A stretch of DNA of 64,000 nt from NCBI GenBank assembly GCA_934254925.1, contig CAKQMD010000004.1:18664-82663 (forward strand), given 5' to 3'. Positions 9,270 through 57,372 of this stretch are shown piece after piece. Both the position numbers and the translations under genes were made by a program. A model generated the notes under the pieces. The model did no database searches. It saw only the letters and a program-made list of their open reading frames with translations, and was not told where the DNA came from. Source of the DNA: an uncultured Alphaproteobacteria bacterium. Lineage in GTDB: Bacteria; Pseudomonadota; Alphaproteobacteria; RF32; CAG-239. How positions within the stretch are numbered: position 1 is the stretch's first letter; the number at the start of each line of letters is the position of its first letter.

Positions 9270-9514
9270 TTATCTTCAGAATCGCCGGAAACGGATTCAC
9301 GAATCGCTTGTAACTGTGGATTCCAGGGGCTTAGCTGTGAATAAGTGCTTGAAAAAACCTTCCGAAATGAAATATTTTGGGGAAAAATGCGCTTTTTGGG
9401 CTGAAAAACGTTGATTTTATTTGACTTATAGAGAAATTGCAGCTTAAATTTTCTTGTGGAAGGGATTTATCTTTCACATTGGTTTATAACTTATCATTAG
9501 AGGGAGTCCTCACC

Positions 9515-9787
9515 GTGAATAAAAATGAATTGATTTCTAGCATTGCTAGCGAAACCGGCCTTACCAAAACTGATTCGGCAAAGGCTTTGGATGCATTTGT
9601 AAGCTCTATTACCAATGCTTTGAAGAAAGGTGACGAAGTTCGTCTGGTTGGCTTTGGTACTTTTGCCGTTTCTAAGCGTTCTGCTACGACCGGCCGCAAT
9701 CCTCGTACCGGTGCCGCTATTAAAATTCCGGCCCGCAAACAGGCTAAGTTCAAAGCTGGTAAAGCTCTGCAAGACTCTGTAAACTAA
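9515..9787 (+). CDS. hupB: HU family DNA-binding protein
   Basis: MNKNELISSIA...RNPRTGAAIKIPARKQAKFKAGKAL. GTG start at 9515 preceded by AGGGAG. Confidence 0.9.
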   Translation: MNKNELISSIASETGLTKTDSAKALDAFVSSITNALKKGDEVRLVGFGTFAVSKRSATTGRNPRTGAAIKIPARKQAKFKAGKALQDSVN

Positions 9788-9797
9788 TTATAAGTAA

Positions 9798-9875
9798 GGG
9801 ACGGTTTTCCGTCCCTTGTTTTACAGTGTTCTTATTTCTAAAAAAACGAAACTCAGAATGGGTTTCGTTTTTTTA
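9798..9875 (+). terminator. Two tandem rho-independent terminators after hupB
   Basis: Hairpin GGGACGG/CCGTCCC plus a T-run, then AACGAAAC/GTTTCGTT plus TTTTT. Both are flanked by A-runs and could act in either direction. Confidence 0.6.
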
Positions 9876-13195: not shown

Positions 13196-13272
13196 GGGCG
13201 TTTAGCTCAGCTGGTCAGAGCATCTCGTTTACACCGAGAGGGTCGGGAGTTCGAATCTCTCAACGCCCACCA
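13196..13272 (+). tRNA. tRNA-Val (anticodon TAC)
   Basis: Cloverleaf by eye: acceptor GGGCGTT/AACGCCC, anticodon loop TTTACAC, T-loop TTCGAAT, CCA encoded. Confidence 0.85.
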
Positions 13273-13300
13273 AAAAAGCACCTTTGGGTGCTTTTTTTAT
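13273..13300. terminator. Bidirectional rho-independent terminator
   Basis: AAAAAAGCACC-TTT-GGGTGCTTTTTTT: palindromic hairpin with an A-run on one side and a T-run on the other. Confidence 0.7.
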
Positions 13301-13376
13301 TGTGGAAGTAGAGATTTGAACTCCCGGGAAGGGAGTTCGACTACCAGCGAGAGGCGGGCGGGAGCACGCCGGTCAG
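13301..13376. repeat. 77-bp palindrome-containing repeat element, copy A, immediately 3' of tRNA-Val
   Basis: About 85% identical to 57194..57270. Contains a perfect 8-bp-stem hairpin, GAACTCCC-loop-GGGAGTTC. Minus-strand reading GGGAGTTCAAATCTCT resembles the T-arm of the adjacent tRNA-Val (GGGAGTTCGAATCTCT). Confidence 0.7.
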
Positions 13377-13765
13377 GACTGCTGCGGACAAGATTGAACT
13401 TGCTTTAGGACATAATGATCGGACAAAGCGCCGGTAATCGGTTGTTTCTCCATGTCCAGTCTTCTGATTTGCTTGTCTTCCAAGCGATACCAGGTGATTT
13501 CGTCCTGAGGGTCATCCGGCGTCAGTTCCAGCAATTGGCCTTCAATTCGGTATTCGCCTGATTCATCAAACCTGCCGTCGGCCTGGTCAATGTAAACGAT
13601 GGTTTGGTGGTAGGCATGATTTGTTTGGAAGCGGATGGTGGTCTCAATTCCCGGTCCGTCGGCGGCCGGGAGAATGCCTCGGTAGGTTCCGCAAAGGTCA
13701 TTATGATGGTGAAAGCAAGCCGTGAGTGCTAAAAAAGCCAATAAAGCCAAAGGTTTTGCCGACAT
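13373..13765 (-). CDS. NlpE N-terminal-domain lipoprotein
   Basis: Signal peptide with lipobox LTAC; GTYRGILPAADGPGIETTIRF matches the NlpE N-domain pattern GxYxGxLPxADxxGIxT. Confidence 0.65.
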   Translation of the reverse strand: MSAKPLALLAFLALTACFHHHNDLCGTYRGILPAADGPGIETTIRFQTNHAYHQTIVYIDQADGRFDESGEYRIEGQLLELTPDDPQDEITWYRLEDKQIRRLDMEKQPITGALSDHYVLKQVQSCPQQS

Positions 13766-37836: not shown

Positions 37837-37912
37837 GGGTGCGTAGCTCAGTTGGTAGAGCAACTGACTCTTAATCAGTGGGTCTGGGGTTCGAACCCCC
37901 ACGCGCCTACCA
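37837..37912 (+). tRNA. tRNA-Lys (anticodon CTT)
   Basis: Cloverleaf by eye: anticodon stem ACTGA/TCAGT, loop CTCTTAA, T-loop TTCGAAC, CCA encoded. Confidence 0.8.
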
Positions 37913-37920
37913 ATAAGAAA

Positions 37921-37956
37921 GACCGGGTGGAAGTTTTGTCCCCGGTCTTTTTTTTA
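37921..37956 (+). terminator. Rho-independent terminator after tRNA-Lys
   Basis: GACCGGG-loop-CCCGGTC followed by T9. Confidence 0.65.
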
Positions 37957-38133
37957 TTCGGGGGTTCTCACCCTGCGGGTTCGTCTGGCTCGTAAGTTTT
38001 TGCGTTGCAAAAAATAACTCGCTGCGGTCACTCGTCTTGTAACGCTTGTTTGGCACGCTTTGCGGCGGCACAAGCTAACAAGACTTCGCCTGTCGTCAGA
38101 AAAGCTTTCACCGGAAGCTTTTCTTTCCTCCAG

Positions 38134-38178
38134 CCCCACGCGCCTACCAATAAGAAAGACCGGGTGGAAGTTTTGTCC
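38134..38178 (+). repeat. 45-bp direct duplicate of the tRNA-Lys 3' end plus the first half of its terminator (copy 2; copy 1 is 37897..37941)
   Basis: CCCCACGCGCCTACCAATAAGAAAGACCGGGTGGAAGTTTTGTCC occurs twice, 192 bp apart. Copy 2 lacks the terminator's 3' half. Confidence 0.8.
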
Positions 38179-38308: not shown

Positions 38309-40729
38309 ATGAGACTATCAAGAACAGCCATCAGGGTTTTATCGGCACAGTATCGCTCTGTGTTGAAAAAGTGCCTTTTAATCAACCTGGGGGTATTTTT
38401 CTTTGCCGGCGTGGCCGGAGCAAAAGACTTTACGACCGGCGAGACGTTGGACGGTTTTAAGGGGGCGGAAACGTTGAACGTGTCCAACGTTGAGAATGTG
38501 ACCATCAAAAACGTTGACAGTACAGGAGCTGGAATCGAGTTTGTTTTTGACAATGCGCAAAACGTTAAAATCGAAAATTCCGATTTGGAGACGGACGGCG
38601 GAAATGTCAGCATTACCAATACCAAAGATTTTTCATACAGCTGCGTCGGCTGTTATGACGATACGGGTGACAATCCCGAGGAATATTACAGCAAATATAT
38701 GTTGGGCGAGGACGTCAATATTTCTGGAAGTACAATTACCTTGGGCACGGATGACAAGATGGACGATTATGCGCGCATCAGCGCCAATCGGGAATTGAAC
38801 ATTACCAATAAAAGCGAAATTACCATGTATGGAAGTTCGGCCTTGGTGTATGAAGGAACGGAAGCCGACGACGGAACCGGCGTCGTCAGTATTTCGGACA
38901 GCAAGCTGTCCTTATATGATAAGTCAGCCTTATGGGTCGGTGAGCCCGGCTGGTGGCTTGGGCAGGACGAAAACAATGATGCGACGGCGCCACTGTTGGT
39001 TTCTAATTCCGAAATCAGCTTAAATGACGACGCTTCAGTCAATTTTGCCGGCAACGGAGCGGAAACCATCATTCAGAATAATTCCAGTATCACAATGAAC
39101 GATCGTTCTTCCATGAAGCTAAACGACTTGGTATTGAAAGATTCGACAATTACTATCAGCGGTGATGCTGCGACCTCCGACGGAAAAGCAAGACTTGAAG
39201 TCAACAATGTTACTTTGGACAACTCGTCTATTTTGGGTGACAATAACATCGTCGATTTCAGCGGAGAGGTCGATTTTACCGGGCTCTTTGATCCGGCGAC
39301 GGCGAACGTTAAGGGAAATTTGACCCGCGGCGGCTATGACGACGACATTACTTATAATATTACCGGTACACTGACATATACCAATGACAAGTTTTTATAT
39401 GATGCAGAAAAACATGGCAGCGAATATGCGCTTAACAGTCTCAATTTTAAAGGCGGGCAACTGAACATTGTCAATGACGAGGCTTCGGAAATCAAATTAA
39501 CCAAGCTTTCTTTGAACGAAACCTCGACCATTGCCCTGGATGCAGATTTGGAAAACAAGAAGATGGACCGTTTTTCCGCCGATACGGTCGTTGACGGCAG
39601 CGGGAAACTTAATATTTCCAAAATCAACCTCATCTCTGACGCCAAAGACGCAGAGACGGTGATTAACTTTACCCAAAATCAGACCTTGTTGGAGGCGACC
39701 GATTATACCGGCGACACTAACGGTTTAAAAGCCCTCTCCCCGGTTTATACTTATGACGTGGCCTATGACAAAACAAACGGCGATTTTACTTTTACCCGCG
39801 GATCAGGAGCTTCCGTTTCCGACTATAACCCTGCGGTTTATGCCGCGTCGGTGGTCGGACATACGGTCGATTTCCTGCAAACCAATGTTGCCAATGTCGC
39901 TTTTGACAACCTGGCGCAAAATCTCGACGATGGAAAACAAGGATTGGCAAGCGGCGATCTGCCGAAAGCCAATAACGCCTGGGTTTCGGTTATCGGTTTT
40001 GACGACAGCGTCGACTTTGACAAGTTTCAATCGGTTGATTCTGATATGACATCGGTGATCGGCGGTGTATCATCGGACGTTCAGCTCACAGACTTGGGAG
40101 ACGTGACTTATGGCGTCTATGCCGGTTATATGCACGGCGAGATTGAATATGACGGCAACAAGATCAACCAAGACGGTGGGTATATCGGCCTGGGAACGAG
40201 AATCGAAAAAGGCAATGCTGTGGTTCAAGGCGCTGTTAACGGCGGTTTTATCGGTAATGAGGAGAAAAATTCTTTCGGAAAAGATAAATTCGATACCTAT
40301 TGGGCCGGTCTTGCGGTGAAAGGTGGTTATGATTACAAGCTTGACAACGGGGTTACGATTCAGCCGAACGTTTATGCCGGATATACTTTTGTGAACAATG
40401 AAGACTATACCTTAAGGTCCGGCACAAAAATTGAAAACGACAATCTGCATTTGTTTGAAGTTGCGCCGGGGATCAAGCTCAGCAAAGACTTCCAAAACGG
40501 TTGGAACGGCTTTGCCCAAGTTAAATATGCTTTTGTCATGGACAATGGCGGAGACTTGAATGTTGGCGATGCTGTTTTGCCTAACATTAGTGCCGACGAT
40601 TATGTTGAGTACGGCGTCGGCCTTGAGAAAACCCTCAATGACGAATGGGATCTTTCCGCCAGCGTCAACCGCAGAGACGGAGGACGCGAAGGTTGGAACG
40701 GTAGCGTCAATTTCCGGTATAACTTTTAA
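38309..40729 (+). CDS. Autotransporter outer membrane protein, 806 aa
   Basis: Extended signal peptide (MRLSRTAIRVLSAQYRSVLKKCLLINLGVFFFAGVAGA), beta-helix-like passenger, C-terminal beta-barrel ending ...GSVNFRYNF. Confidence 0.8.
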   Translation: MRLSRTAIRVLSAQYRSVLKKCLLINLGVFFFAGVAGAKDFTTGETLDGFKGAETLNVSNVENVTIKNVDSTGAGIEFVFDNAQNVKIENSDLETDGGNVSITNTKDFSYSCVGCYDDTGDNPEEYYSKYMLGEDVNISGSTITLGTDDKMDDYARISANRELNITNKSEITMYGSSALVYEGTEADDGTGVVSISDSKLSLYDKSALWVGEPGWWLGQDENNDATAPLLVSNSEISLNDDASVNFAGNGAETIIQNNSSITMNDRSSMKLNDLVLKDSTITISGDAATSDGKARLEVNNVTLDNSSILGDNNIVDFSGEVDFTGLFDPATANVKGNLTRGGYDDDITYNITGTLTYTNDKFLYDAEKHGSEYALNSLNFKGGQLNIVNDEASEIKLTKLSLNETSTIALDADLENKKMDRFSADTVVDGSGKLNISKINLISDAKDAETVINFTQNQTLLEATDYTGDTNGLKALSPVYTYDVAYDKTNGDFTFTRGSGASVSDYNPAVYAASVVGHTVDFLQTNVANVAFDNLAQNLDDGKQGLASGDLPKANNAWVSVIGFDDSVDFDKFQSVDSDMTSVIGGVSSDVQLTDLGDVTYGVYAGYMHGEIEYDGNKINQDGGYIGLGTRIEKGNAVVQGAVNGGFIGNEEKNSFGKDKFDTYWAGLAVKGGYDYKLDNGVTIQPNVYAGYTFVNNEDYTLRSGTKIENDNLHLFEVAPGIKLSKDFQNGWNGFAQVKYAFVMDNGGDLNVGDAVLPNISADDYVEYGVGLEKTLNDEWDLSASVNRRDGGREGWNGSVNFRYNF

Positions 40730-57061: not shown

Positions 57062-57151
57062 GGAGAGGTGGCAGAGCGGTTTAATGCAGCGGTCTTGAAA
57101 ACCGTCGAGGGAGCGATCCCTCCGGGAGTTCGAATCTCCCCCTCTCCGCCA
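57062..57151 (+). tRNA. tRNA-Ser (anticodon TGA)
   Basis: Class II tRNA, acceptor GGAGAGG/CCTCTCC, anticodon loop CTTGAAA, long variable arm, T-loop TTCGAAT, CCA encoded. Confidence 0.8.
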
Positions 57152-57159
57152 TAACAAAA

Positions 57160-57191
57160 ACGGCCTGCCTTGTGCGGGCTGTTTTTGTTAT
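57160..57191 (+). terminator. Rho-independent terminator after tRNA-Ser(TGA)
   Basis: GCCTGC-CTTGT-GCGGGC plus TGTTTTTGTTAT. Confidence 0.55.
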
Positions 57192-57193
57192 GA

Positions 57194-57270
57194 TGTGGAA
57201 GGGAGGAATTTGAACTCCCCAAAAGGGAGTTCGACTACCAGTGAGAGGCGGACGTGAGGACGCCGGTCAG
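57194..57270. repeat. 77-bp palindrome-containing repeat element, copy B, 3' of tRNA-Ser(TGA)
   Basis: Aligns with 13301..13376 over the TGTGGAAG...ACGCCGGTCAG core; identical 8-bp hairpin stem with a different loop (CAAAA vs GGGAA). Confidence 0.7.
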
Positions 57271-57313
57271 CAACGCTGACGAACGCCTGTGCAACTCGAG
57301 CAACGCGAAGAGT

Positions 57314-57372
57314 AATCTCCCCCTCTCCGCCATAACAAAAACGGCCTGCCTTGTGCGGGCTGTTTTTGTTAT
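57314..57372 (+). repeat. 59-bp direct duplicate of the tRNA-Ser(TGA) 3' end plus terminator (copy 2; copy 1 is 57133..57191)
   Basis: AATCTCCCCCTCTCCGCCATAACAAAAACGGCCTGCCTTGTGCGGGCTGTTTTTGTTAT is present twice, 181 bp apart, bracketing repeat element B. Confidence 0.85.

Follow-up and report, generated by a model that had tools for sequence, protein, structure and literature searches.

A probable unit of the tRNA-linked repeat (TLR) type behind tRNA-Ser(TGA) of an uncultured alphaproteobacterium, from a sequence family separate from that of E. coli

The 59-nt direct repeat found at tRNA-Ser(TGA) in the stretch of DNA studied here (64,000 nt in all, and called the window in what follows) is probably part of one unit of a tRNA-linked repeat (TLR), i.e., of a structured non-coding module of about 120 nt that would be transcribed together with the tRNA by read-through, and whose number would be changed by recombination between the repeats. 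By its defining features the unit is a TLR, whereas by sequence it belongs to a separate family; the kind of element was already known, and what is new is the family, referred to below as type 1. The preliminary description of this DNA had taken the repeat for the attL/attR-like scar of an integrase-mediated insertion at a tRNA gene. The duplicated tRNA 3′ end around a small element and the variability of the site were borne out, but the integrase mechanism was not.

The tRNA-Ser(TGA) gene (57062–57151, plus strand) is intact, with an encoded CCA (ARAGORN; Rfam tRNA 57.6 bits), and at the gathering threshold four tRNAs were the only Rfam matches in the whole window. A repeat search of the window recovered the perfect repeat that had been described, with one copy at 57133–57191 and the other at 57314–57372 (both plus strand), 100% identical to each other, at a spacing of 181 nt and enclosing 122 nt. 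The repeat starts at the T-loop residue A58 of tRNA-Ser, so that it takes in the final 19 nt of the tRNA (nt 58–76) and no more of it, at 57133–57151 in the gene itself and at 57314–57332 in the second, copied tail, and it ends at the base of a 19-bp hairpin. This terminator-like hairpin (hairpin 1, 57150–57192, plus strand) has a perfect stem, CAUAACAAAAACGGCCUGC/GCGGGCUGUUUUUGUUAUG, with an A-run on its 5′ side and a T-run on its 3′ side, and folds in RNAfold with −29.2 kcal/mol (z = −8.1); a simple terminator scan did not flag it. The same terminator-like hairpin (hairpin 2) follows the copied tail in the second copy of the repeat. The genes next to the locus are those of a DUF2157 protein, an SLT protein and, beyond the second repeat as had been noted before, an autotransporter (PF03797, 57464–59818, minus strand).

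[quoted passage not shown] Next come the hairpin P1 (GAACTCCC/GGGAGTTC, 57212–57232, plus strand), which, in the family as a whole, covaries with the linked tRNA's T-stem, and then a core three-way junction (57236–57291, plus strand) that was delineated with a covariance model built from 20 units (model R1) and by covariation. The junction is made of stem J (57236–57243 with 57284–57291), P2 (57247–57264) and P3 (57266–57280), the last of which is the GTCAGC-AAC-GCTGAC hairpin that the preliminary description had correctly pointed out. A further hairpin, P4 (ACTC...GAGT, 57294–57313, plus strand), adjoins the start of the copied tRNA tail. The score of the tRNA-Ser unit with R1 is 80.4 bits (57225–57317).

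Much of the periphery of the unit can be read as pieces of the tRNA. The 3′ strand of P1 and the TTCGA behind it (57225–57234) repeat nt 49–57/58 of tRNA-Ser, and in every type-1 unit these positions equal the 5′ strand of the T-stem of the linked tRNA together with the first bases of its T-loop. The stretch just before it looks like a reverse-complemented T-arm and, to a lesser degree, acceptor strand, and after the core the tRNA sequence restarts at A58. The order of a type-1 unit can be written as the reverse complement of tRNA nt 49–76, a loop, nt 49–57, the core (J, P2, P3, P4) and nt 58–76. In the RNAfold structure of the window unit, the 5′ arm pairs with the copied tail (57314–57330) and the 3′-terminal CA stays unpaired, and the unit RNA is predicted to close as an acceptor/T-like helix with a free CCA. 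An alternative predicted pairing joins the 5′ arm to the real tRNA-Ser end across hairpin 1; the calculated duplex energy of the arm is −14.6 kcal/mol with its own tRNA end versus −10.0 kcal/mol with other tRNA ends.

That the fold is conserved was seen from compensatory changes in the helices P1–P4 of the type-1 family. Among 63 distinct type-1 sequences, which were aligned by fitting to the model (a MAFFT alignment gave the same picture), 95.8% of the cells are paired, and double changes were counted in 9 pairs (3.5 ± 0.7 in shuffles) and in 76 cells (25.4 ± 4.3 in shuffles); slid controls of the helices were 14–47% paired. P1 occurs with 12 different 3′ strands; in 10 of 26 units its two strands pair completely, as against 1% when partners are swapped, the corresponding values for the P4 stem being 15 of 26 units and 15%. 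A duplex-energy test showed that the 5′ arms bind their own tail better than other tRNA tails (−11.4 versus −9.4 kcal/mol, p = 4e-4), also when one unit per tRNA type was used (p = 0.013); an alignment-based test of whether the arm reverse-complements its own tRNA tail fell short of significance (p = 0.10). The preliminary description had itself named a conserved structured RNA as the finding that would speak against a variable insertion site, and the compensatory changes point to just such an RNA, though the site is variable as well. A hammerhead-like reading of the three-way junction was also considered and rejected: CUGAUGAG is present in few copies only, the strands of the junction do not fit the hammerhead core, and there was no match to an Rfam ribozyme.

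Further copies of the internal sequence, for which the preliminary description had suggested a search, proved to be numerous, with 79 copies found by model R1 in 65 loci of gut and rumen bacteria. A scan of GTDB with an exact pattern, using one genome per species, gave nine loci, all of them in Alphaproteobacteria MAGs from gut or rumen, and eight of the nine matches lie just behind tRNA-Val(tac); synteny around this tRNA-Val copy holds in many species. These loci contain up to 2–3 tandem units of tRNA tail, terminator and module, the last of which is broken off at a variable point. In metagenomes, a scan with the core motif gave 72 loci, about 19 of which were discarded as chance matches within high-GC coding regions. 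In most of the remainder, the motif begins 69–90 nt past the end of a tRNA, and 12 tRNA species are represented, namely Lys(ttt, ctt), Ser(cga, gga, tga), Met, Arg(acg), Pro(tgg, ggg), Val and Gly(ccc, gcc). Where exact tail copies were found, they match the adjacent tRNA, and in many single units the 19 nt alone are repeated, with two terminators that are unlike. The remaining dozen or so loci have no intact upstream tRNA or are interrupted by the end of the contig. A viral collection of 2.9 million contigs yielded a single match, which was dismissed as a coincidence in coding sequence (FDYQREA).

Several loci depart from this regular pattern. Orphan type-1 units, flanked by copies of tRNA tails and with no intact tRNA upstream, were seen among L029, L070, L080 and L054; the tail is Gln-like in L070 and of the Ser(cga) kind in L080, and one unit of L054, behind tRNA-Ser(cga), has a tail of the Pro type. 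The orphans and the mismatch in L054 suggest rearrangement or movement between loci, and no other stable-RNA genes were found upstream of the orphan units. Near-identical cassettes of terminator plus module occur at tRNA-Ser(gga) and tRNA-Ser(cga) (L044/L090 versus L059/L074/L082/L098/L100), where the 19-nt tails alone differ, each matching its own tRNA; the cassettes may have arisen by gene conversion among tRNA loci that are alike or by copying templated on the target. The arrays also appear to break assemblies, with the contigs L005, L006 and L023 ending inside them.

In the window, similar features are present at three of the four tRNA genes, with nothing of the kind at tRNA-Ser(gct). Directly 3′ of tRNA-Val(TAC) (13196–13272) plus terminator lies a truncated type-1 unit (13296–13384, plus strand; R1 38–47 bits), and over 71 nt the Ser unit (57208–57278) is 86% identical to it (13314–13384), which is the sequence that had earlier been named repeat element B and which is confirmed as a real repeat. 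The Ser and Val copies are the only ones that R1 detects in the window. The tRNA-Val unit breaks off after P2 and adjoins the stop codon of an NlpE-like gene, and one further locus (L018, GCA_944392195.1) has an identical NlpE protein and the same gene order as the window. A genomic island at tRNA-Val was rejected: the downstream genes are those of NlpE, DUF3750, Sir2 and a hydrolase, and there is no second tRNA-Val tail. At tRNA-Lys(CTT) (locus 37837–38178), a second family ("type 2") was encountered, in which a 45-nt perfect repeat (37897–37941 and 38134–38178) surrounds a 192-nt unit (37897–38178 in all, plus strand). Here the repeat consists of 16 nt of the tRNA tail and half a terminator, and the unit ends ...TTCCTCCAG|tRNA tail. 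Relatives of type 2 were seen in L033, in tandem downstream of tRNA-Gly(gcc), and in L045 and L087, where they come after a type-1 unit downstream of tRNA-Met. Three same-species contigs have equal gene spacing at the tRNA-Lys locus and an identical 238-nt unit. Both tRNA loci with full units, Lys and Ser, adjoin autotransporter genes (PF03797), the one next to tRNA-Lys at 38309–40729 (plus strand), which may be a coincidence or mark a common variable region.

The comparison of occupied and empty sites that the preliminary description had proposed could be made within the species. Contigs of the same species at tRNA-Ser were picked by their identical DUF2157 neighbour. Two independent assemblies (L003 and L004) have the filled allele as in the window, and since they show the same structure, the repeat is not an assembly artefact. 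In two others (L001 and L002) the site is exactly empty and reads ...GTTTTTGTTAT|TGTCAGAGG, with one copy of the repeat and no insert. The filled and empty alleles differ by exactly 181 bp, i.e., by the module and one repeat copy, and the empty allele shows that the terminator duplicated in the window is the locus's own. Such a pair of alleles is what an integrase insertion would leave, but it is explained equally well by recombination between the identical 59-nt repeats. Homologues of the DUF2157 protein that were looked up for the polarity of the change at tRNA-Ser were at most 39% identical and non-syntenic, with one exception, a protein of 95% identity whose 1.4-kb contig stops short of the tRNA-Ser site; the unit at tRNA-Ser(tga) of another organism (L055) is not syntenic with the window locus. 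At tRNA-Val, seven contigs match the window in having the truncated unit only, and L023 carries one extra full unit (L023:2827–3100) that ends in the tRNA-Val tail. L023 belongs to the same MAG as L002, the contig with the empty tRNA-Ser site.

A separate 121-nt insertion is present in L001, L002 and L004 at the anticodon loop of tRNA-Ser(tga) (L001:5668–5788, minus strand, corresponding to 57099/57100 of the window). It comes with a duplicated 5′ half of tRNA-Ser (nt 1–38, with one C/T difference), contains a degenerate copy of the anticodon arm and has no relatives among the fetched loci. Three of the four possible combinations of this insertion and the 3′ unit were found.

In E. coli K-12, the TLRs amount to 22 units at ten loci; they were first seen in 1978, have no known function, and are recognized by a 3′ end that repeats, without a difference, the final 18–19 bp of the tRNA or 5S/rRNA gene upstream (PMC8144298). 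They include the 178-bp repeats of tyrT/tyrV with the RtT RNA (Rfam RF00391), described by Egan & Landy 1978 and Rudd 1999 (summarised in PMC8144298). The window unit (57192–57332) likewise lies behind a tRNA, tRNA-Ser with its hairpin, and in the same orientation; its last 19 nt (57314–57332) are identical to the tRNA end at 57133–57151, as is the case in the family at large; and it is a member of a repeated family, with two type-1 copies in the window, 79 in 65 loci, and arrays of 2–3 units. The E. coli TLRs, too, follow tRNA genes in the same orientation, are found at numerous tRNA loci and form tandem arrays, and the tyr/arg units among them share with the window family the junction GAGT|AATCC with a tail that starts at A58, an arm with complementarity to the tRNA tail, and GC-rich internal hairpins. 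RtT folds, like the window unit, with a closing helix of arm and tail, leaving CCA unpaired where the window unit leaves CA. The two families differ in their cores, which read GTTGC-N3-GCAAC-GGCCCGAAGGG in E. coli and CUACCAGCGAAAGGC-P2-GGU-P3-AUGAGCGCCUGUGC in the window family. They also differ in that each unit here is preceded by an intrinsic-type hairpin, which the 59-nt repeat of the window spans, and in their hosts, which are uncultured Alphaproteobacteria of gut and rumen for the one and enterobacteria for the other.

The two families were also compared by sequence searches. The Rfam model of RtT (RF00391) reached 13.8 bits on the window (E = 6.6, at 57187–57332), below its gathering score of 45, and this was set aside as noise together with a permuted tmRNA match (13 bits) that came up when Rfam was run over the window in E-value mode. 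Weak as it was, the RtT match pointed to the E. coli tyrT locus. In eight relatives, the RtT model had no match at E ≤ 1, as compared with 133–137 bits on the E. coli units, and nhmmer core profiles had no match in the E. coli tyrT locus. Model R1 aligned to the unit in the tyrT–tyrV spacer at full length and in register with 18.5 bits (a rough E of 0.0002–0.0025, depending on search size) and scored 6.5–9.9 bits on the other E. coli tyrT units, scores that come in part from the T-loop-derived ends common to both families. In pairwise alignments with E. coli units, one pair had z = 4.9 and the others z ≤ 2.4. Sequence homology of the window family to the E. coli TLRs is weak, and common descent is possible.

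Three of the E. coli TLRs lie behind 5S rRNA, between the terminators T1 and T2, and are made by read-through of T1 and subsequent processing (PMC8144298). The sRNAs RrA, RrB and RrF are such TLRs, between T1 and T2 of the rrnA, rrnB and rrnD operons, and bind Hfq and CsrA via GGA motifs (PMC8144298). The order at rrnB (5S, T1, TLR, T2) parallels that in the window (stable RNA, terminator, unit, terminator). The tail copied in RrA/RrB/RrF is, however, 18 nt long and linked to 5S rRNA, whereas the unit in the window is linked to a tRNA, and the two terminators, unlike each other in the rRNA operons, are identical copies in the window. A further comparison is with the RNAs of tRNA 3′ external transcribed spacers such as 3′ETS-leuZ, which are trailers of tRNA transcripts set free during tRNA processing (cited in PMC8144298); 3′ETS-leuZ differs from the window unit in being a plain trailer, without a copied tRNA tail and without a repeated family.

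By analogy with these systems, the tRNA promoter would drive the unit via read-through of hairpin 1, and hairpin 2 would terminate the transcript. In the modelled fold, the 5′ arm and the copied tRNA tail would pair into an acceptor/T-stem-like helix with a free NCCA, a structure on which tRNA-processing enzymes could act to set free a stable RNA some 140 nt long. The number of units would shift by recombination or slippage between the identical repeats, which is the proposed source of both the 181-bp filled and empty alleles and the tandem arrays. Repeat recombination covers the loss of units and the growth of arrays, but not the first unit with its Ser-specific tail and duplicated Ser terminator. 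For that step a structure-guided template switch is a candidate, judging from the sequence, and fits the boundaries at A58 and at the hairpin base as well as the duplication of the locus's own terminator.

The TLR reading has to be weighed against others, the most obvious of which is the integrase scar or, in a variant, a miniature integrative element mobilised in trans; a small circle carrying a tRNA 3′ end would have entered the T-loop, its cargo having been deleted or never present. The locus does look the part. As at att sites in tRNA genes, a direct repeat of the tRNA 3′ end runs from the T-loop around extra DNA, with exact filled and empty alleles, and the T-loop is reportedly the classic crossover location of tRNA-targeting integrases (Williams 2002). 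Repeated integration could moreover yield tandem arrays, and the many single units that have the 19-nt repeat alone and differing terminators are what an attP-borne terminator would give. This reading is nevertheless very unlikely. The search for integrase genes came up empty, both among 19 ORFs scanned in the window and in L013 (Pfam) and, as integrase Pfam domains, in the genes called at the same-species loci; the genes adjoining the locus are ordinary ones, and no true match was obtained in the 2.9 million viral contigs. The same module sits at no fewer than 12 tRNA species, at least, each time with that tRNA's own tail and behind an intact tRNA, whereas one system with a single attachment specificity would make chimeric tRNAs; one module with twelve correct tails cannot have originated from one site-specific system. 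The interior, which had been thought to be what is left of an almost fully deleted genomic island, is instead a conserved module of about 120 nt with RNA-like structure and compensatory changes, and the terminator duplicated in the window belongs, according to the empty allele, to the locus itself. A MITE or IS-derived element was rejected as well: the 122-nt module has no terminal inverted repeats, and the duplication, 19 to 59 nt or more in length, is tRNA-derived.

Another possibility, unlikely on balance, is a true non-autonomous mobile element that uses the T-loop as anchor to place copies of itself behind tRNA genes, by a template switch at the terminator base that returns at the T-loop or by target-primed reverse transcription of a CCA-ended RNA. 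With either mechanism the target would be duplicated over a variable length (19 to 59 nt or more) starting at A58, and the boundaries of the repeat in the window are exactly A58 and the base of the 19-bp hairpin. The tRNA-specific tails around a common core, the near-identical cassettes with matching tails at tRNA-Ser(gga) and tRNA-Ser(cga), the orphan units with tail copies away from intact tRNA genes (L070, L080) and the filled and empty alleles would all follow, and the forward–reverse–forward layout of tRNA nt 49–76 seems to be of the kind that fold-back template switching leaves. The units are, however, not accompanied by any reverse transcriptase or transposase, and copies at different tRNAs within a genome are diverged (Ser and Val, 86% over 71 nt; L052 and L055, visibly different on one contig), so that a burst has not occurred recently; the synteny of the tRNA-Val copy across many species suggests vertical inheritance, and tails could also adapt through gene conversion between similar tRNA loci. 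The units might, finally, be a functionless by-product of replication errors at hairpin-rich tRNA/terminator DNA, where fold-back and tandem duplications are tolerated. Inverted and direct partial copies of the tRNA, a varying number of units and the independent duplication of the 5′ half of the same tRNA-Ser gene in other strains would be expected from such errors; a core of about 80 nt conserved with compensatory changes in 79 copies, at many loci and in many species, would not, nor would the register at A58 that is constant throughout, and this explanation is most unlikely.

If the unit is the TLR that it appears to be, the duplicated tRNA 3′ end, a widely used signature of genomic islands, has a common look-alike, which pipelines and readers will mis-call. 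The TLRs of E. coli have been known since 1978 with no accepted origin or function, and a second and a third sequence family of the same architecture are now seen in distant, uncultured bacteria of gut and rumen. The 79 copies, the compensatory changes and the tRNA-specific arms of type 1 argue that the architecture is selected and is no oddity of E. coli, and the filled and empty alleles and the variation in unit number within a species make the movement of units testable. More speculatively, TLR-type units, the window family among them, could be a hitherto unrecognised class of non-autonomous mobile RNA genes that ride tRNA promoters and tRNA processing by mimicking the acceptor/T-arm and CCA, and that spread via T-loop-anchored copying (template switching or CCA-primed reverse transcription). 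Should this tentative idea hold, the filled and empty alleles at tRNA-Ser(TGA) would be a recent insertion caught in a natural population.

Two other parts of the window were looked at in passing. A conserved block of about 310 bp (9476–9806) was rejected as an RNA, being the gene of the DNA-binding protein HU (9497–9787), with about 90% nucleotide and 93% amino-acid identity to loci of Alphaproteobacteria MAGs from gut and rumen, among which it places the window. Between 26425 and 27715, a sequence is duplicated in tandem (period about 715 bp, 72–90% identity over four segments), which looks like two paralogous small genes on the minus strand with signal-peptide-like starts.
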